Positions 14,246-57,238 of a stretch of DNA of 64,000 nucleotides are shown here, in pieces; within the stretch, counting starts at the first letter, position 1; each line of letters begins with the position of its first letter. A model generated the notes under the pieces. It was not told where the DNA came from. It ran no database searches and saw nothing but the letters and a program-made list of their open reading frames with translations. A program made the position numbers and the translations under genes. This stretch comes from Shigella phage JK55: sequence record MK962758. The stretch is one strand, 5' to 3'.

Positions 14246-15355
14246 ATGTTGACTAATTCTGAAAAAAGCAGATTTTTCCTTGCTGACCTGACTGGTGAAG
14301 TCCAGTCTATCCCTAATACTTATGGGTATATTTCCAACTTAGGTCTGTTCCGTTCAGCACCAATCACCCAAACTACTTTCCTTATGGACTTGACTGATTG
14401 GGATGTTAGCTTGCTTGATGCGGTAGACCGTGATAGCCGTAAAGCAGAGACTAGCGCACCTGAGCGTGTTCGTCAAATCAGCTTCCCAATGATGTACTTC
14501 AAAGAAGTTGAAAGCATTACTCCTGATGAGATTCAGGGTGTACGTCAGCCAGGCACTGCAAACGAACTGACTACTGAAGCTGTAGTACGTGCTAAGAAGC
14601 TGATGAAGATTCGTACCAAGTTCGATATTACTCGTGAGTTCTTGTTTATGCAAGCTCTGAAGGGTAAAGTTGTTGATGCTCGTGGTACTCTGTATGCTGA
14701 CCTGTACAAGCAGTTCGACGTTGAGAAGAAGACTATTTACTTCGACCTTGACAACCCTAATGCTGACATCGATGCTGCTATTGAAGAACTGCGTATGCAC
14801 ATGGAAGACGAAGCTAAGACTGGCACTGTAATCAACGGTGAAGAAATTCACGTAGTTGTTGACCGTGTATTCTTCAGCAAACTGGTTAAGCACCCTAAGA
14901 TTCGTGACGCTTATCTTGCACAGCAGACTCCACTGGCTTGGCAACAGATTACTGGTTCTCTGAGAACTGGTGGTGCTGACGGCGTTCAGGCTCATATGAA
15001 CACTTTCTACTACGGTGGTGTTAAGTTTGTCCAGTACAACGGTAAGTTCAAAGACAAGCGTGGTAAGGTTCATACTCTGGTTAGTATTGATGGTGTTACT
15101 CAGGATGGAACTGTAGGTGTAGGTCATGCTTTCCCTAACGTTTCTATGCTGGGTGAAGCAAACAACATCTTCGAAGTGGCATATGGCCCATGTCCTAAGA
15201 TGGGTTATGCAAATACTCTGGGTCAGGAACTGTACGTATTCGAATACGAAAAAGACCGTGACGAAGGTATTGACTTTGAAGCTCACTCTTACATGCTGCC
15301 ATACTGCACACGTCCTCAGTTGCTGGTAGATGTTCGTTCTGACGCTCAAGAATAA
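14246..15355 (+). CDS. major capsid protein
   Basis: 369 aa, strong RBS, position after protease/decoration genes, followed by rare-codon-poor highly expressed-looking sequence. Confidence 0.75.
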   Translation: MLTNSEKSRFFLADLTGEVQSIPNTYGYISNLGLFRSAPITQTTFLMDLTDWDVSLLDAVDRDSRKAETSAPERVRQISFPMMYFKEVESITPDEIQGVRQPGTANELTTEAVVRAKKLMKIRTKFDITREFLFMQALKGKVVDARGTLYADLYKQFDVEKKTIYFDLDNPNADIDAAIEELRMHMEDEAKTGTVINGEEIHVVVDRVFFSKLVKHPKIRDAYLAQQTPLAWQQITGSLRTGGADGVQAHMNTFYYGGVKFVQYNGKFKDKRGKVHTLVSIDGVTQDGTVGVGHAFPNVSMLGEANNIFEVAYGPCPKMGYANTLGQELYVFEYEKDRDEGIDFEAHSYMLPYCTRPQLLVDVRSDAQE

Positions 15356-34671: not shown

Positions 34672-35001
34672 CTAGTCTGCCAACCTTAAATTGAAATTAA
34701 CACCAAATTTTTCACATACTTCCAACATATACTCAAGGGAAACATTACCAGTGAGGTGGATTATGTTGGATACACGAGCCTGAGAGATACCACAAATTTT
34801 AGCAACTTGCTCTTGAGAAAGACCTCTGGATTTAATCTCTCTCTTAAAACGATGTGCAACGAAGTCTCTCATTTCGTCTACATCCATTGGACAAATATAA
34901 CTCTCCATTTCAGCCTCTCTATCAGCCTCCCAATCATCTTGTGGAGCATAAGGGTCAAAAACTTCATTCATCTTTCTTCTTCCGTTTGCGTGAAGTGTCA
35001 A
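34672..35001 (-). CDS. XRE-family helix-turn-helix regulator
   Basis: C-terminal HTH LSQEQVAKICGISQARVSNIIH. Confidence 0.6.
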   Translation of the reverse strand: MTLHANGRRKMNEVFDPYAPQDDWEADREAEMESYICPMDVDEMRDFVAHRFKREIKSRGLSQEQVAKICGISQARVSNIIHLTGNVSLEYMLEVCEKFGVNFNLRLAD

Positions 35002-35177
35002 TCAATGAATCTATGTTTGTAGCCCTAACCTTTTCACGTTCATCGTTAAGATAATCATCAAGAGCCTTTTCAATCTGTGAATCATCTTGACAGATAACTG
35101 TAAAGACTGTAAAGCCGTCTGTATCGTCAATTATCTTACCATAACCGCTTCTGGGATGTAACTTTTTAAGAGCCATA

Positions 35178-35561
35178 TCAAATACCTGTGCAGCTTCTGT
35201 TTTCTAAGAAATACTCAACACCATACATAGCTTTTTGCATCAAATCTTCTTTAAACTGGATACGATGATTAAGCATAGCCTGTACATCAATATCATCATG
35301 GTGCTTCTCTTTGATATTTGCAGATTGCAGGAAATACTCTGCAAGAACACGATACTGATAGTCAGTTACCTTATCAGTCATCTCTGTTAAAGACTCTTCA
35401 GAGATTGGTTTAAGTAGCTCACCATTAGCCAGAGCAACACCTTTTACAATCTGACAAGTGTCTTCTGAAACACCTGATAAGTCAACATTTGGAAGTTCTG
35501 TTGCATTGACTGGTAAATTTATTGCCATAACCATTGCAGCAGCTAATAAAATCTTTTTCAT
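35178..35561 (-). CDS. secreted protein with Sec signal peptide
   Basis: MKKILLAAAMVMAINLPVNA followed by TE; RBS gagg upstream. Confidence 0.6.
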   Translation of the reverse strand: MKKILLAAAMVMAINLPVNATELPNVDLSGVSEDTCQIVKGVALANGELLKPISEESLTEMTDKVTDYQYRVLAEYFLQSANIKEKHHDDIDVQAMLNHRIQFKEDLMQKAMYGVEYFLENRSCTGI

Positions 35562-35745
35562 AATGACCTCAAAGTTATATTAAATTTTGTATTACATTGA
35601 GTATAAAAATAAGCTATAACACCTGACTTGTCAACAGATTTTATAGCTTATTTGGCAGATTTTTTATAAGGCTACTGCCATCCTTCCATACCAAACCCTA
35701 CCGAACAGAACCATGCTTTGCCATACTGGACAACACCTGACCAGA

Positions 35746-35783
35746 CATCACTTAAAAACCCTTTCAAAGACTCTTAAGTGATG
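35746..35783. repeat. hairpin repeat R1a (10-bp stem catcacttaa/ttaagtgatg)
   Basis: near-identical copy R1b at 36030..36069. Confidence 0.6.
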
Positions 35784-35784
35784 T

Positions 35785-35823
35785 AATCGAATTTTAATGT
35801 AGCTCCGATTAACTACCCATACC
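35785..35823. repeat. hairpin repeat R2a (stem aatcg/cgatt, loop attttaatgtagct)
   Basis: copy R2b at 35943..35981 keeps the loop and tail but changes both stem arms compensatorily. Confidence 0.6.
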
Positions 35824-35826
35824 TTG

Positions 35827-35880
35827 CATTACTTCACCAAACCGTACATTACTTCACCAAACCATACATTACCAGACCAT
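35827..35880. repeat. tandem direct repeats of 20-mer cattacttcaccaaacc(g/a)ta, about 2.5 copies
   Basis: units at 35827-35846 and 35847-35866 plus a degenerate third. Confidence 0.6.
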
Positions 35881-35942
35881 GCCACACCTGTCCAAACTCA
35901 ACCTCATTAAAAGACCCTGTTTAAAGACCTTTTAAAAAGGTA

Positions 35943-35981
35943 AGTCTCATTTTAATGTAGCTGAGACTAACTACCCATACC
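35943..35981. repeat. hairpin repeat R2b (stem agtctc/gagact)
   Basis: see R2a. Confidence 0.6.
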
Positions 35982-36029
35982 AAACAGCACCGCACTATGC
36001 CTTACCCCACCTCACCGAGCCTCGCCCCA

Positions 36030-36069
36030 CATCACTTAAAAAACCCTTTTCAAAGACTCTTAAGTGATG
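36030..36069. repeat. hairpin repeat R1b
   Basis: see R1a. Confidence 0.6.
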
Positions 36070-36283
36070 TTGGTGAGTACCCGTTGGTTTATGCTGCTCA
36101 GTATACTCACCAAATTTTCTATGTCAACAACTTTTTATAAAAAGTTCTGATAGCTATATGTGTCACGAAACAAAAGATTGTAAACAAGACACCCATTGCA
36201 AAAGATGTGTCCAAAAGCTTACTTGCAACATATGACAATACAAAGACAACCAGTATAAACATAATGACTGTACTGAACATAGT

Positions 36284-37387
36284 TTACTCATAATCCCTAA
36301 TAACTAGCCCAACAGGAAACTGTAAAGAACCCTTACGAGTCATCTTCTGGAACTGAACCGTTAAAGGTTTCCCGATAAACTCTTCAGGATGCTCAGCAAG
36401 ATACTGTTTCTTCTCATGAGTAGTCTTCCATGAGACATCTACAAAGACGTTAGGAAGAGTCTCTACAACGAACTTACCGTGACCACGTTTATCGGTCTTG
36501 ACACCAGTCACTTTAAACTCTTCAGTGTGCATCTTCTTGTGCTTAATCAAGAAGTATGAACGGTGACAACACTCATAGAAGGAGTCTTCAGAGATTGAAC
36601 GGTACATTGCACCTTCAAACTTAGCTTCAACCCACTTATCATGAGCTTCATCAAACTCTTCCCAAGAATTTACACGACGAGATTTAACAGGGACAACTTT
36701 ACAGCCGTCTCTAAAGTCATTCAATGGTGAAGTCTCAATAATATCTCTACGCTCAGGCCACGTTTTAGTACTGTCACAGATATCATACCAGTAGAACTTA
36801 AGTAAGTGTCTGTCAGGATTGTCTTCATTTTTAATCATGGAGACAATATCTTCTAAGTCCCACCCATGAGCATAAATCTCTCCATCAAATTCATCAACAT
36901 CTTTGTGGAGCCTTAACATTGCCATAATGTCAGGTATTAGTTCAGTAGGGATTTTGTAAACAGTATTCTCACGAGAATATGCTGTAAATACACTGCCAAT
37001 ACTTAAGTGTCTTGAAATTCTACAACGTACACCATCAAGTTTTGGTTGAGCATCAGCAGGGAACTTCAGATACTTTGCATGACTAACCTTTGCAGCATCA
37101 TGAGCAAGTTGTACACCTACTTTCTCAGTATTCTTTGCAGACTCTTTTGTGTAAGCGTAGCCTTTACGGTCAACTTGCTTTTTATACTTAGCAGCAACTT
37201 CAAAGAGAGCTTGCTGTTCAGCGTTACGCTCATTCTTTTTACCGATGTTTTTCGGTTCTGCTGTGTACTCTTCAAACATCATCTTGCCATTTTCTTTACC
37301 ATAGGTTGTAATAACTTTGTCACCTACAGCAACGCATGACCAGACGTTGAAAGAGCCATCTTTATTTTGTTTGTATAGGATTGTCAT
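36284..37387 (-). CDS. ATP-dependent DNA ligase
   Basis: motif I PKLDGVRC, motif III FDGEIYAHG, motif IV FEGAMYRS, motif V FLIKHKK; RBS agagga before ATG at 37387. Confidence 0.75.
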   Translation of the reverse strand: MTILYKQNKDGSFNVWSCVAVGDKVITTYGKENGKMMFEEYTAEPKNIGKKNERNAEQQALFEVAAKYKKQVDRKGYAYTKESAKNTEKVGVQLAHDAAKVSHAKYLKFPADAQPKLDGVRCRISRHLSIGSVFTAYSRENTVYKIPTELIPDIMAMLRLHKDVDEFDGEIYAHGWDLEDIVSMIKNEDNPDRHLLKFYWYDICDSTKTWPERRDIIETSPLNDFRDGCKVVPVKSRRVNSWEEFDEAHDKWVEAKFEGAMYRSISEDSFYECCHRSYFLIKHKKMHTEEFKVTGVKTDKRGHGKFVVETLPNVFVDVSWKTTHEKKQYLAEHPEEFIGKPLTVQFQKMTRKGSLQFPVGLVIRDYE

Positions 37388-37389
37388 TT

Positions 37390-37581
37390 TTATTCCTCTG
37401 AGTGATACCAAGTATTGCAAGCATTACATGCGTAAAGCTCTAAGTCATTTTTATCTGGTTTATGAAAACAGTTTGCTCCGCAGTGGCAACGAAATGGCTT
37501 TCCACCAACTGTCAGGACGAAGGACTGAATCTTTCCATCAGGAGTCCGTACAGCATTTTTATGCTTATCTTCTTTGTTCAT
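37390..37581 (-). CDS. small Cys-rich protein
   Basis: 63 aa with CHCGANCFH and CNACN. Confidence 0.4.
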   Translation of the reverse strand: MNKEDKHKNAVRTPDGKIQSFVLTVGGKPFRCHCGANCFHKPDKNDLELYACNACNTWYHSEE

Positions 37582-38688: not shown

Positions 38689-39201
38689 TCAAGATAGTTT
38701 TGCAAACTCTCCGTGGAGTTTAATAGCAGCTTCACAGTAAGCTTTATGGGCTTCTTCTGGTGTGTCAAACATACCAAGATGATAGTTTTTACCTTGTAAA
38801 CGTATCATTGCTCGAAACCTTTTACTTATCTTCTGTACACCTTTTGGCAACCCAGATGGGGACTCTCTTGACCGATTGCAAGAGTTTTGTGAAGCTGTAC
38901 AAACCCTTAAATTCAAGTACCTATTGTCCCAACCGTCCCCATTCTTATGGTCAACCTGTAAGGTTTTATCAGGTAGATATCCATCCATATACAAGATAAC
39001 TAAACGATTTGCTTGGTAACCCCTTCCATCAATCAGCAACTGAACTGACTTGTGTCCATCAGTATTTGTTCTGTAGTTTCCAGCCCTCTTACCTCCAAAT
39101 CTAGAGTTAAAGTTTGCATTACCTTCTCTAAACTTCCAAGTAAAGACCCCTGTTTCGGGGTCGTAGTCCAATAGCTCCTTAAGACGAATTTCTGTAATCA
39201 T
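38689..39201 (-). CDS. HNH homing endonuclease with AP2 DNA-binding domain
   Basis: HNH motif VDHKNGDGWDNRYLNLRVCTASQN; AP2-like GVQKISKRFRAMIRLQGKNYHLGMFDTPEEAHKAY. Confidence 0.8.
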   Translation of the reverse strand: MITEIRLKELLDYDPETGVFTWKFREGNANFNSRFGGKRAGNYRTNTDGHKSVQLLIDGRGYQANRLVILYMDGYLPDKTLQVDHKNGDGWDNRYLNLRVCTASQNSCNRSRESPSGLPKGVQKISKRFRAMIRLQGKNYHLGMFDTPEEAHKAYCEAAIKLHGEFAKLS

Positions 39202-39211
39202 TTCAACACCA

Positions 39212-41911
39212 TCAATGCACTTCCAACCAGCTCTTACCAACCTTACCTGTGCCAGTTACAAGCGTCTCACTCTTCAAACCTAAATTCTTAGATGCCTGAC
39301 CATACATCCAGTCAGTTATGGCTTTAACTTCTTGAGTCATACTTTCTGGGCACTCCCAACTGTTTTCATCGTGGTATGCCAGCAAAAGCCTAGCACCAAT
39401 TGCTGGTTTTCGTCCATTTAATTTTGTCAACCCTTCTTCACATGCTCTTCTACAAGCAAGGTTAATTGCCTCATTTTGAATCTGAGCCTCTGAACCCATC
39501 AAAAGATAGTTCAATAATTTGTGTGGAGATTTACACCACAACCAAGCTCCTGCAACCTTTACAAAACCTCCTTTAGAGATTGCAGCAGTCTTACCAAACA
39601 CCTCTTCAAGTGCCTTTTTAGTTGCTTTGTAGTCAGCTTCCAAGTCATCTAGCAGCTTCTTAATTTTAGGCAAACGAATAAAGTAAGTCTGTTTAGTTAG
39701 TGCGCCTTCCTGAGTAGTTGCAGCTTTAATCGTCTTAGCAAACTTCTCATCACCTGCACCGAACAGCAGTGCATAGATACCATTCTTAGCTTTCTTACGA
39801 CCCTTACTAATCTCATGGAGAAGGTTCTCATCCTGAGTAGCACGACAAGTCAAGATGTCCTGCTCATCATTCAAGCTAAAGTAAATACTATTCAGTGTAT
39901 GCGCATCAGTCCCTGAATAGACAACATACAGGTCATTCTCAGAGTCATAACGAAGGTACTTATCAATCTCTGGGTTGAGGTACTCATCAAAGTGTTTGCA
40001 GTAATAGCGTCCATCTTCTTGACGAATAAACTCAATCTCTTCTTTACCTTGCGTTACCGCTTTGGTGAAGTCTTTGTCACCCATAAAGTTACAAAGGAGA
40101 ACTAGCTGGGCTGAGTTCATGTCTACAGAGACAACGTTAGTACCTTCTTCACAAATCCACACTGCCCTCATTGGTTCCCCATAGACAGCAGCACCAGACG
40201 GTACGTTTACAATACCATATTGTGTCATACGTCCAGTTGAAGTGCCAAATACCATTGCACCAGCACTAAGGCGACCATCAGGACGAATCTGGTTCAACCA
40301 ACCTTTTTCATCATCTTTTGAGTTCTCAATAGTTCTGCGTCGGTGCATTAAAGTATAGTACTTAGCAATCTTCTGTCCAAGCTCACCTTCAATCGTATCA
40401 TAAGATGATTCAGTAAGTTTTGGTGAAGTACGGATTAAGCAAGGCTCAAGCAAATCTGTGTACTTCTTCACAGACCAGTTATGCTCAATGTACTGTACAC
40501 CTTCGTGCTCAACATAGCTCAAACCACACCGCTCAACCATTTCCTGCCACTTAGGATGTTTTGTAATCATCTTTTTATTGTCTTTGAAACGACAAACTTT
40601 GACAGGGCGACCGTCTGAGTCTTTCTTGTAGTTCCAGTCATCTGGAATCCAACCAACTGATTTCAAGTAGTCTTTAACAACTGCTACCTGAGTCATACGA
40701 GAAACTTCAAACTCAATTGGTGTATATGGTGCATCAATCAAACCTGTGTAGCGACTTGACTCAAGTTCAAAGTGGTTAACAACGTGGCTGTTATAGTACT
40801 TCACAGTTTTGACTGTTTTTACTGGCTTCCAGTCTTTGCATTTCTTACCAATCTTTGCATTCAACTCATTGCAAATTGCACGAGCATCCTTCATTGCTAC
40901 AAAACCTTCCTTGTACTCTTCACCAGTTACAGAGTTGGTTGGTGTATAGCAATTCCTTTTTTCAATGTTAAAAATCTTTGTAGTTGGCTTACCAAATGGT
41001 TTGATTTCATAAGTCTGCATCTCACCATTACGTACCTGCTGACGATACTTTGTCTTAGGGTACTTGGTAATTCTTTTCAGTCCATCTGCATGACCAAATG
41101 TTTCAACATACTCATTCCAAGCTTTTGCAAACTCTTCTCCAGTGACTTTACCTTTGGTCTTAATAGTTGGAGGTAGATGTGGTTCAACCTCTGAAGCAAG
41201 CTCATTAGTCAACTTGTCAAGCTCCTTTACATGGAACTCCATAAGCTCTTTATCAGCTTTCCAACCATTGATAGCTTGTTGACTCATCCAGAAAGATGTT
41301 TCTTTAGCTCGCATGTAAGTTTCATAAGTGTCTATACCACACTTCTTAAGCTTGAGATACTCGTTATCAAGTGCCCGTTTAGTTTTGGCATTAATACGGA
41401 TATCTTCTACAACACGAGTGAAGATTTCTGCATTCCACACACCCCAATGTTCAATCTCTGGTTTACGGACACCAACACGAGCACCCCATGCAGCCAAACC
41501 ATGAGCACCTTTATAGCCCTTTGGAGTTGGTCTATCCATCCACTGAACACGGGACTGGATAAGAGAATCCTGAAAGAAATTACTCCACGGTTTACACTTT
41601 GGATTATCAAAGTTCCATAAATCAGGTGCAATGTGATTAAAAACCCACCAGTCATAACCGAGACCATTATGGATGCAAAGACGTTTTGCCTTTAACGCAA
41701 ATTCAACACCTTCACGTAAACCACCTTTGATGTACTTAGTGTACTTGTGACCGAGGATAGGCTCATCTGTAAAGACCCATACAGGTGGCTCTTCATCGTC
41801 AGATTTATAGTCTGCAAAGGCCATTACGTGAACTTTAGTGAACTCAAGGAGTAAACCATCAGTTTCTGTATCACCAACCAAATGTAAGTTTTTAAAATCT
41901 ACGTTTTCCAT
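39212..41911 (-). CDS. family A (Pol I/T7-like) DNA polymerase with 3'-5' exonuclease domain
   Basis: exo I GDTETDG, motif B-like KKAKNGIYALLFGAG, motif C LLAYHDENSWE; RBS gagggag before ATG at 41911. Confidence 0.85.
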   Translation of the reverse strand: MENVDFKNLHLVGDTETDGLLLEFTKVHVMAFADYKSDDEEPPVWVFTDEPILGHKYTKYIKGGLREGVEFALKAKRLCIHNGLGYDWWVFNHIAPDLWNFDNPKCKPWSNFFQDSLIQSRVQWMDRPTPKGYKGAHGLAAWGARVGVRKPEIEHWGVWNAEIFTRVVEDIRINAKTKRALDNEYLKLKKCGIDTYETYMRAKETSFWMSQQAINGWKADKELMEFHVKELDKLTNELASEVEPHLPPTIKTKGKVTGEEFAKAWNEYVETFGHADGLKRITKYPKTKYRQQVRNGEMQTYEIKPFGKPTTKIFNIEKRNCYTPTNSVTGEEYKEGFVAMKDARAICNELNAKIGKKCKDWKPVKTVKTVKYYNSHVVNHFELESSRYTGLIDAPYTPIEFEVSRMTQVAVVKDYLKSVGWIPDDWNYKKDSDGRPVKVCRFKDNKKMITKHPKWQEMVERCGLSYVEHEGVQYIEHNWSVKKYTDLLEPCLIRTSPKLTESSYDTIEGELGQKIAKYYTLMHRRRTIENSKDDEKGWLNQIRPDGRLSAGAMVFGTSTGRMTQYGIVNVPSGAAVYGEPMRAVWICEEGTNVVSVDMNSAQLVLLCNFMGDKDFTKAVTQGKEEIEFIRQEDGRYYCKHFDEYLNPEIDKYLRYDSENDLYVVYSGTDAHTLNSIYFSLNDEQDILTCRATQDENLLHEISKGRKKAKNGIYALLFGAGDEKFAKTIKAATTQEGALTKQTYFIRLPKIKKLLDDLEADYKATKKALEEVFGKTAAISKGGFVKVAGAWLWCKSPHKLLNYLLMGSEAQIQNEAINLACRRACEEGLTKLNGRKPAIGARLLLAYHDENSWECPESMTQEVKAITDWMYGQASKNLGLKSETLVTGTGKVGKSWLEVH

Positions 41912-55093: not shown

Positions 55094-57238
55094 ATGAACA
55101 AAGTACAGATTATTAAAAAGAACGGCTCACTTGAAGAACCTGATATCAAAAAAGTTTTAGCAGCAGTCACAAAGTCAGCTAACAGAGTTGGTTATAAAGA
55201 GCTTCCACCAGATGTTACTCAAGCTCTTGAGTCAGCATTTATGAGGATTCTGGTAAAGTCCACTAAGCAGAATAATTTGCTAATTTCTGTGAATGATATT
55301 CACAGTATTGTTGAGGGTGCTTTGGCAGAAGTCAATCACGAGATTTATGAGTCTTACTCAACATATAGAAATTACCGTAAAGAAGTTGCTCAAAATTGGG
55401 ATGAACTCTACCAGAAGACCAAAGATACACTCTTCTTAGGTGACAGAGAGAATGCTAACTTTGACAGCAGTTTAATTTCTACAAAAGGTTCAATTATTCG
55501 TGGTTATCTGACTAAAGAAATCTTTAAACAGTACCACTTAACACCAGAGGAACTTGAAGCCATTGAAAAAGGGTTTATCTATATCCATGATTTAAGAGAC
55601 CTAATTTTTGGTGGTATCAACTGTTGCCTGTTTGACATTGGTAAAGTCCTGAAAGGTGGCTTTGAAATGTCTGGCATTGAATATTGTGAACCAAAGTCTG
55701 TACTTTCAGCCTTACAGGTTATTGGTGACGTAGTTCTTTCAGCAACTGCACAGCAATTTGGTGGCTTTACTTTAGCAGAGATTGATAAGGTACTTGTGCC
55801 GTATGCTAAGAAGTCTCTACGCTATCATGCTGAGAAAGCAGCATCTTATGGTATTCCTAAAGAACATTACCACAATTATGTCATGGAGCAGCTACAGATT
55901 GAACTGACTCAAGGTTTCCAGTCACTTGAAATGAAACTAAACACTGTACCTTGTAGTCGTGGGGATTTTGCATTTACAACTTTGACATTCGGGTTGCTTG
56001 ACTCAGATATGTCTAATGAAGATAACCGACTGCAATACATGATTGCAAGTACTCTCCTAGATGTTCGTATGAATGGACAAGGTAAGAGCAAGAAGCCTGT
56101 TGTATTCCCTAAACTGGTTTATATTTATGACCAGAAGAGACACGATGAGAATATCTGTCAAGGACACCTGTACAGTAAAGCTATAGAGTGTTGCTCTAAA
56201 GCGATGTATCCAGATTTCTTAAGTGTATCTGGTCATGGTGCTGTAGCAGAGGCTTTTGAGCGTTCTGGCAAGGTTATTTCGCCGATGGGTTGCCGAGCGT
56301 TCTTATCTCCGTATCTTAACGAGAATGGGGAAGAGTTCTACGTTGGTCGTGCTAACATTGGTGCTGTGTCTTTGAACTTACCAATGATTTACCAGTATTC
56401 TAAAGAGAATGGTTTAGATTTCTGGAAAGAGCTTGATAAGTACCTAGAAATGATTCGCAGCTTCCACAAGAAACGTTACGAAATGATTGCTAATATGCCA
56501 GCAAGTTCTAACCCTCTTGCATTTACACAAGGTGGTCTGTATAAAGGAACTAAGAAGCCTACTGACAGGGTTGGTTGGGATATTGTGAAGTCATTCACAG
56601 CTTCTTTTGGGGTTACTGCGCTTGATGAACTATCTGTTCTTGCTGAAGGTAAACGACTTCATGAAGTTGGAAGCTATAGTTTTGCATACGATGTTCTGGC
56701 GTACATCAACATGAAAACTGAAGAGTTTAAAAATGAAGATGGTTTCTTATATGCAGTCTATGGCACTCCAGCAGAATCACTTTGTGGAACTCAGCTAAAA
56801 CAGTTCAGAGATATGTTTGGCGTTATCAAAGGTGTTTCTGATAAAGAATACTTTACAAATAGTTTCCATATGAATGTTGCAGCAGACATTACACCATTTG
56901 AGAAGCAGAACTTAGAAGAACCCTTCTTCCATATCTGTAGAGGCGGCAGAATCCAGTATGTAAGGGTAGCTAACCCAGAAAACTTACCAGCACTTAAAAG
57001 TTGTATTACAAGAGGGATGTTGAAAGGTTTCTATCAGGGACTTAACTTTGACTTAGCAATCTGTGAACATTGTGGTAACAGACCAAAGGCTGATGTTGAA
57101 GAATGTGAGGTTTGTCATTCACACGATATCTCTGTGATTAACAGGGTGTGCGGATATTTGGGATGGACTAAGATTAAAGGTGAATCCCGAATGAATGATG
57201 CAAAAATCGCTGAGATTCGTGACAGAATTTCTATGTAA
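55094..57238 (+). CDS. nrdD: anaerobic ribonucleotide reductase (class III)
   Basis: C-terminal zinc ribbon CEHCGN...CEVCHSHD and glycyl-radical motif NRVCGYLG. Confidence 0.9.
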   Translation: MNKVQIIKKNGSLEEPDIKKVLAAVTKSANRVGYKELPPDVTQALESAFMRILVKSTKQNNLLISVNDIHSIVEGALAEVNHEIYESYSTYRNYRKEVAQNWDELYQKTKDTLFLGDRENANFDSSLISTKGSIIRGYLTKEIFKQYHLTPEELEAIEKGFIYIHDLRDLIFGGINCCLFDIGKVLKGGFEMSGIEYCEPKSVLSALQVIGDVVLSATAQQFGGFTLAEIDKVLVPYAKKSLRYHAEKAASYGIPKEHYHNYVMEQLQIELTQGFQSLEMKLNTVPCSRGDFAFTTLTFGLLDSDMSNEDNRLQYMIASTLLDVRMNGQGKSKKPVVFPKLVYIYDQKRHDENICQGHLYSKAIECCSKAMYPDFLSVSGHGAVAEAFERSGKVISPMGCRAFLSPYLNENGEEFYVGRANIGAVSLNLPMIYQYSKENGLDFWKELDKYLEMIRSFHKKRYEMIANMPASSNPLAFTQGGLYKGTKKPTDRVGWDIVKSFTASFGVTALDELSVLAEGKRLHEVGSYSFAYDVLAYINMKTEEFKNEDGFLYAVYGTPAESLCGTQLKQFRDMFGVIKGVSDKEYFTNSFHMNVAADITPFEKQNLEEPFFHICRGGRIQYVRVANPENLPALKSCITRGMLKGFYQGLNFDLAICEHCGNRPKADVEECEVCHSHDISVINRVCGYLGWTKIKGESRMNDAKIAEIRDRISM

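Follow-up and report, generated by a model that had tools for sequence, protein, structure and literature searches.

Paired hairpins downstream of the DNA ligase gene of a Felix O1-like phage as probable 3' tails of orphan VIPR guide RNAs

The gap downstream of the DNA ligase gene

The 64-kb stretch of DNA analyzed here (the window) derives from a Felix O1-like myophage of the genus Felixounavirus, carries 25 tRNA genes, has matches to 256 phage records and shares 96.4% identity over 61 kb with Escherichia phage humlepung. The hairpins R2a and R2b, first noticed from the sequence alone, lie in a 557-bp gap (35562-36118) between a short hydrophobic ORF that follows the DNA ligase gene and the gene for a 127-aa protein (ORF127; Table 1). 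All genes around the gap are on the minus strand, in a block that spans DNA polymerase to thymidylate synthase and includes ligase and DHFR, and the plus strand of the gap is nearly free of G (GC skew -0.4 to -0.7, minimum -0.68). The stop codon of the 53-aa ORF overlaps the -35 hexamer of the predicted promoter P1, and this ORF is missing or shorter in several relatives. Also in the vicinity are a gene for an HNH endonuclease with an AP2 domain (38689-39240, between the DNA polymerase and ligase genes), likely a homing endonuclease, and a gene for an XRE-type HTH regulator (34672-35001), three genes downstream of the inverted repeat at P2.

Read 5' to 3' on the minus strand, the gap holds P1, a hairpin bracketing its -10 hexamer (hairpin P), three units and a promoter-like site (P2). 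Each unit consists of an inter-unit hairpin (A), a G/U-rich (GGYNN)n spacer and a 32-nt element (B), and (GGYNN)n runs occur in the window only immediately 5' of the three B elements. The pentamer profile of 74 unique arrays had G at position 1 in 81% and at position 2 in 96%, T or C at position 3 in 99%, and no constraint at positions 4 and 5. The 74 unique spacers contained 9-19 pentamers each and had lengths that were multiples of 5, a period that excludes coding. The variable dinucleotides of the first spacer read GG GA TC GA GG AA AT GC GC TT AT, and this spacer is identical in phage humlepung. The second contains an internal 20-nt duplication (UUUGG UGAAG UAAUG UACGG / UUUGG UGAAG UAAUG CAAGG) and many imperfect GG units, yet is identical in phage Shy.

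P1 was recognized in a consensus scan in which similar matches were equally frequent in shuffled sequence. All 27 sources with arrays, the window among them along with 26 related loci, have P1 conserved upstream of the array; in the array-less relatives (loci L142-L144) it stands directly upstream of the ORF127 homologue. The array would probably be transcribed from P1 on the minus strand, a reading drawn from sequence and conservation. In L142 (11105-11175) and L144 (11265-11325) the arms of hairpin P are wholly different (TTGGTGAGTA, ACATAGCAAG, CCTGACGGG), with the repeat and the enclosed TATACT kept; hairpin P may serve as an operator or may fold as a hairpin in read-through RNA. P2 is annotated as a promoter in ASO1A. 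Its 19-bp inverted repeat (35607-35653, AAATAAGCTATAA... / ...TTATAGCTTATTT) surrounds the -35 hexamer, right after the last B element.

Table 1 Features of the gap and its edges, in minus-strand order; vrRNA designations follow the probable identification given in the text.
Feature	Position	Strand	Details
DNA ligase gene	36284-37420	minus	beyond the 53-aa ORF
53-aa hydrophobic ORF	36119-36280	minus	phrog_22006, function unknown; one edge of gap
P1, sigma-70-like promoter (predicted)	36100-36127	minus	TTGACA, 16-nt spacer, TATACT; 11/12 matches; points into gap
Hairpin P	36070-36113	minus	10-bp inverted repeat TTGGTGAGTA / TACTCACCAA; brackets P1 -10 hexamer
Hairpin Aa-1 (R1b of the earlier note)	36030-36069	minus	CAUCACUUAA ... 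UUAAGUGAUG; inter-unit, precedes vrRNA-1
Probable vrRNA-1, guide body	35975-36029	minus	11 YNNGG pentamers, 9 perfect
Probable vrRNA-1, 3' tail (R2b), type b	35943-35974	minus	S1a GUAG, UU, S2a AGUCUC, AG, S1b CUAC, L3 AUUAAAAU, S2b GAGACU; covariance model 67 bits, E = 3e-15
Hairpin Ab	35901-35941	minus	ACCUUUUUAAAAG ... CUUUUAAUGAGGU; inter-unit
Probable vrRNA-2, guide body	35817-35900	minus	17 pentamers, 10 perfect
Probable vrRNA-2, 3' tail (R2a), type a	35785-35816	minus	S1a GUAG, UU, S2a AAUCGG, AG, S1b CUAC, L3 AUUAAAAU, S2b UCGAUU; covariance model 63.2 bits, E = 4e-14
Hairpin Aa-2 (R1a of the earlier note)	35745-35784	minus	inter-unit, precedes vrRNA-3
Probable vrRNA-3, guide body	35686-35744	minus	12 pentamers, 8 perfect; first unit starts 35745
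Probable vrRNA-3, 3' tail, type d	35653-35685	minus	S1a AAGG, A, S2a UGGCAG, UAG, S1b CCUU, L3 AUAAAAAAU, S2b CUGCCA; covariance model 48.4 bits, E = 4e-10; absent from the earlier list
P2, promoter-like site	35606-35653	minus	TTGACA, 17-nt spacer, TATTTT; inside 19-bp inverted repeat; adjoins the ORF127 gene upstream
ORF127 gene	35178-35561	minus	127-aa protein, function unknown; other edge of gap
Tail type c			S1a GUGG, S2a UGGUAG, S1b CCAC, S2b CUACCA

Two interleaved helices in element B

On the plus strand, R2a (35785-35823) reads aatcga-attttaatgtagct-ccgatt-aactacccatacc and R2b (35943-35981) agtctc-attttaatgtagct-gagact-aactacccatacc. The 14-nt loop and the 13-nt flank each occur exactly twice in the 64 kb, in R2a and R2b, so that the earlier claim of an identical loop and flank was correct, as was that of three stem differences each matched on the opposite arm (A-T to G-C, G-C to T-A and a.c to C-G). 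The division of R2a into arms and loop had been off by one base, with no effect on the compensation pattern, and the a.c pair, a mismatch on the plus strand, is a G.U wobble on the minus strand (AAUCGG/UCGAUU). The flank had been called a 3' tail, a label that fails on the minus (coding) strand, where it sits 5' of the hairpin.

On the minus strand the hairpin stem (S2, 6-7 bp) is interleaved with a 4-bp helix (S1) formed between the bases preceding the stem and the supposed loop, which gives the 32-nt element B an H-type pseudoknot topology with an A-rich third loop (L3, e.g. AUUAAAAU). The conservation of loop and tail is partly due to this mutual pairing, which is GUAG/CUAC in R2a and R2b and covaries to GUGG/CCAC and AAGG/CCUU elsewhere; the R2 hairpin is therefore one helix of a pseudoknot. 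Four types (a to d) were distinguished by their S1 and S2 arms (Table 1).

Covariation across homologous phages, which the earlier note had proposed as a check, was analyzed in 29 loci around ligase homologues from IMG/VR and in several GenBank loci. In 94 copies of element B (29 distinct, from 27 sources) 95.9% of cells were paired, S1 and S2 both covaried and two-sided changes were seen in 9 of the 10 pairs; the variation falls into four discrete sequence types and therefore represents few independent covariation events. Sliding the 3' partners by 1-3 columns lowered pairing to 31-44%, and a hand-picked set of elements left the result unchanged; one copy in phage dune has A.C in S1. The proposal that the structure of the stem rather than its sequence is conserved was thus upheld. 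Folding energies were unremarkable (z-scores -0.8 to -1.2), and the minimum-energy fold of R2b is the S2 hairpin.

The covariance model built from related copies matched the window, at E up to 0.1, only at 35941-35980, 35783-35822 and 35652-35691 (E 4e-10 to 3e-15), and the sole further match at E up to 10 was at 56960-56997 (11.4 bits, E = 5.6). In related loci it detected no element B outside the gap in the 10 kb on each side of the ligase gene, nor did it detect any in about 95 unrelated viral contigs. An exact scan of IMG/VR for the 14-nt loop returned only chance matches in unrelated contigs. Of the Rfam 15 families, only tRNAs passed the gathering threshold in the window; relaxing the cutoff to E = 10 brought three chance-level matches, none on R2. 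The loop-closing pair of type a, on the minus strand, is G.U in the window and G-C or A-U in other phages, and hairpin A has U.G pairs on the minus strand that would be C.A on the other; both lend mild support to a minus-strand RNA.

GenBank annotators assumed ordinary intercistronic terminators, or stem-loops for RNA processing or stability, in the ligase operon. The elements are indeed intergenic and on the coding strand, and a 'rho-independent terminator' is annotated in the homologous gap of ASO1A. However, a scan of 35000-36800 found no terminator-like site, the stems are A/U-rich with loops of 12-16 nt and no U-tract after them, and a plain terminator would leave the (GGYNN)n runs and the covariation of a second helix unexplained, which makes such an explanation highly improbable.

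Relation to the guide RNAs of VIPR systems

[quoted passage not shown] According to these preprints, a vrRNA consists of 9-16 YNNGG repeats, with GGY conserved and NN hypervariable, followed by an invariable 3' tail of ~40 nt that contains a pseudoknot in the SUSP1 clade; the terminal pseudoknot was resolved by cryo-EM. They also report that Vipr, a RAMP-like protein of about 20 kDa, binds as one protomer per GGY in a filament guided to DNA, and that the NN dinucleotides read dsDNA while skipping one base per repeat, as demonstrated experimentally in VIPR-encoding relatives. The complex represses transcription of competing elements, in the SUSP1 clade mostly satellite phage, and the vrRNA was seen as a small RNA of about 100 nt co-purifying with Vipr in the SUSP1 and P. 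fulva systems only. In SUSP1, vipr-vap is preceded by one vrRNA and followed by three (bioRxiv 10.64898/2026.04.26.720920, 10.64898/2026.04.26.720927).

In the locus of Escherichia phage SUSP1 (L141) our covariance model gave four matches, as tails, in exactly the published 1+3 layout, and ORF195 of that locus, a protein of 22 kDa, has eight of the nine published Vipr residues (H17, E71, M72, R138, C173, D177, W178 and R179). The exact pattern (GGTNN)x6 was found in at least 120 IMG/VR contigs, many with several degenerate arrays, and a homologue of ORF195 (Vipr) was encoded, among the matches listed, in 31 of 119 IMG/VR contigs picked by the DNA pattern alone. The layout, the residues and the association between pattern and Vipr identify R2a and R2b as vrRNA 3' tails. 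We thus consider it very probable that the two hairpins belong to the 3' pseudoknot tails of two of three minus-strand tandem vrRNA genes of a type II VIPR system of the SUSP1 clade, whose vipr and vap genes are gone and whose vrRNAs are orphan.

The window resembles the vrRNA loci of this clade in its GGY/NN bodies of 11, 17 and 12 units (vrRNA-2 being one above the published 9-16), in its 32-nt tails of pseudoknot topology, three covariance-model matches with two interleaved covarying helices directly after the last repeats, and in its tandem, hairpin-separated arrangement downstream of a DNA ligase gene. One covariance model matches SUSP1, SUSP2 (L140) and the window. Unlike those systems, the window lacks vipr, vap and the upstream vrRNA with a type-c tail. 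The S1 and S2 pairs, derived here from sequence covariation, may correspond exactly to those of the published pseudoknot.

The signal seen in the raw sequence would accordingly be part of the cap at the 3' end of a guide RNA, namely one of its helices; the first report of this class of RNA-guided DNA-binding systems dates from 2026. The earlier interpretation was incomplete in that the functional strand appears to be the minus strand, the loop and tail pair together, and the element is probably a guide-RNA cap rather than a stand-alone structure. The idea of a protein-recognized RNA stem-loop gains from the homologous SUSP1 element, which belongs to an RNA that co-purifies with Vipr; that of a cruciform found no support. 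The identification also explains the labels 'DR_4', 'repeat_region' and 'terminator' in GenBank records of Felix O1-like phages.

The inter-unit hairpins have two stem types (CAUCACUUAA and CCUUUUUAAAAG) and the common loop motif GUCUUU..AGGGU, and show U.G, U-A and C-G exchanges in relatives. They are probably not part of the mature vrRNA (about 100 nt) and may mark sites of processing; look-ups in the two VIPR preprints turned up no mention of them.

Among structured RNAs, the CRISPR crRNA handle is comparable: there too a conserved, structured handle, bound by a RAMP-fold protein, caps a variable guide, an analogy drawn in the preprint itself (bioRxiv 10.64898/2026.04.26.720920, 10.64898/2026.04.26.720927). 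VIPR differs in its non-contiguous guide (NN per pentamer), its pseudoknot handle in place of a repeat hairpin and its lack of acquisition machinery. Small H-type pseudoknots whose third loop is A-rich, such as the preQ1-I riboswitch (RF00522), share the topology S1-L1-S2-L2-S1'-L3(A-rich)-S2' within about 34 nt; however, no Rfam match was obtained at E up to 10, the lengths of the two helices are interchanged, the C that contacts the ligand is not conserved and the element is not at a ribosome-binding site. A preQ1-like riboswitch was rejected for the missing Rfam match and the missing conserved residues. Also set aside were a genome terminus or packaging site, as the terminal repeats of UAB_Phi87 lie elsewhere, and a replication origin or R-loop, a G-quadruplex array, a site for a TRAP-like ring protein, an anti-Rho leader and a Shine-Dalgarno-like sponge, all superseded by the exact vrRNA match.

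An element acting as DNA, whether an R-loop-primed replication origin (a strong promoter followed by a G-rich non-template strand), iterons or protein-bound cruciforms, would suit the extreme GC skew, the position within a block of replication genes (polymerase, ligase, DHFR and thymidylate synthase) and the apparent use of the repeats as recombination substrates. We give such an element hardly any credence, because the published RNA exactly explains both the pseudoknot topology and the 5-nt period of GGY, and because loci hold from one to five units and the region is missing in loci L142-L144, which have no array, and in Kolesnikvirus (L155-L157, more distant Ounavirinae), where other genes follow the ligase gene with no gap and no vrRNA; this would be unlikely for an essential origin. 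Upstream of its ligase gene, Kolesnikvirus has a gene for a CCA-adding enzyme.

Orphan arrays, their possible targets and related contigs

The SUSP1 Vipr had no match above noise in the 64-kb window by tblastn (best E 3.6), and vap (vap1) had no tblastn match there, with ~21 kb of the genome lying outside the window. Neither vipr nor vap was matched by tblastn in the complete humlepung genome; the positive control, Shy, gave 97-99% identity (Vipr 97%). No Pfam family scored above threshold for Vipr or Vap. With vipr and vap absent here, the three vrRNAs are orphans. This state is shared by roughly half of the Felixounavirus records, including Felix O1, whose gap of 282 bp holds a single type-d unit and which lacks vipr. 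Vipr was found in 118 Ounavirinae records, versus 230-256 records for the vrRNA region, so that vrRNA units are far more widespread than vipr in this phage group.

In phage Shy, which carries vipr, the order of elements is P1-hpP-Aa-Bb-Ab-Bc-vipr-vap-GCterm(GC hairpin)-Ab-Bb-Ab-Ba-Aa-Bd-P2, and its last two guides are those of vrRNA-2 and vrRNA-3 of the window, identical in sequence. Hairpin Ab and the R2b tail together form a direct repeat of roughly 70 bp that flanks vipr-vap in relatives and is named DR_4 in the wV8 annotation. Cutting the Shy segment between its two Bb-Ab repeats yields exactly the order of the window, which places R2b at the likely recombination junction. The vipr-vap cassette may accordingly have been lost by homologous recombination between the flanking tail-b and hairpin-Ab repeats, a route that fits the architecture. 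It appears that the effector cassette is often lost by way of the system's own tail repeats. Such a consequence recalls the promoter-early stem-loop (PeSL) cassettes of T4-type phages, which Arbiol et al. reportedly described in 2010 as repeated intergenic hairpin/promoter modules flanking optional genes that recombination adds or removes. The likeness is confined to recombination: the repeats considered here would be functional RNA genes and not regulatory cassettes.

Loci with and without vipr are interleaved in neighbor-joining trees of both flanks (L126-L154, L277, L280), which implies repeated loss, or gain by recombination. Perfect repeats made up 74.0% in orphan units versus 78.5% in vipr-carrying phages, and tail scores were equal; this lack of decay fits either recent loss or retained function. 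The orphans are, in our estimation, probably recent relics, inert without Vipr, and the RNAs of this phage would be inactive alone unless a co-infecting relative supplied the protein. Among CRISPR systems, orphan arrays left without effector genes are a familiar occurrence.

Orphan vrRNAs might instead still function, either as guides in trans with Vipr from a co-infecting vipr-carrying Felixounavirus or satellite, or as decoys that soak up a competitor's Vipr (9-17 protomers per RNA). The integrity of the repeats and tails, as good in vipr-less as in vipr-carrying loci, would suit this, as would the presence of the type-d tail in all array-bearing loci, at least that unit being kept in every array-bearing Felixounavirus locus examined, Felix O1 included. 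The interleaving in the flanking-gene trees indicates that vipr-less and vipr-carrying phages share hosts and recombine, and one of the preprints reports satellites with vrRNAs of their own, as well as vrRNAs directed against other VIPR systems (bioRxiv 10.64898/2026.04.26.720920 or 10.64898/2026.04.26.720927). Against function, the guides identical in the window and Shy point to a recent deletion, which suffices to explain the lack of decay, and the IMG/VR, GTDB, metagenome and 2.8-Mb scans yielded no target for any guide of the three. Continued function is thus unlikely in our judgement, and that the arrays of vipr-less Felixounaviruses, that of Felix O1 among them, are maintained because they still work as borrowed-Vipr guides or titrating decoys is, going by sequence comparison, slightly more doubtful again. 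Were the orphans functional, trans-acting or decoy RNAs would be added to phage-phage conflict, and a decoy would amount to an RNA-based anti-VIPR countermeasure analogous to RNA anti-CRISPRs.

Following the rule of one skipped base per repeat, target patterns were derived from the NN code and searched for as exact matches. The exact xNN patterns of vrRNA-1 and vrRNA-3 had no match in IMG/VR, and that of vrRNA-3 none in GTDB representative genomes. In each of two scans, of metagenomes and of GTDB, the vrRNA-1 pattern had two chance-level matches. These lie in unrelated bacteria, with one contig shared; one match falls in the 3' end of an ORF that we take, from its sequence, to be TatD-like. 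In the 2.8 Mb searched for natural targets of the window guides, the window included, nothing exceeded shuffled guides. A BLAST comparison of the array with 5,426 complete E. coli genomes found nothing, and satellite vrRNAs, if any, are therefore too dissimilar for that search.

The element itself is already known, having been described in June 2026. What may be new is the orphan state, how often it occurs in Felix O1-like phages, and the part that the repeated tails play in loss of the cassette; look-ups in both VIPR preprints turned up neither orphan vrRNAs nor Felix O1. A protein-centered discovery pipeline such as the published one would presumably miss vipr-less loci.

In the unrelated viral contigs L158-L276 from IMG/VR, degenerate (GGYNN)n arrays were common, often 7-10 in a row (L167, L177 and L254), and the Vipr homologue of 31 of these 119 contigs is located near the arrays. 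The same set contained a second class of contigs with perfect microsatellites, e.g. (GGTTA)n and (GGTCG)n, that may have nothing to do with VIPR. In L180 (about 14807-14934, minus strand) and L270 (734-870) the arrays are followed by the tRNA T-arm motif GGTTCGATTCC, with a Vipr homologue adjoining. ARAGORN predicted no tRNA beside the arrays with this T-arm-like sequence, which may represent a different type of tail or a tRNA-like processing signal.
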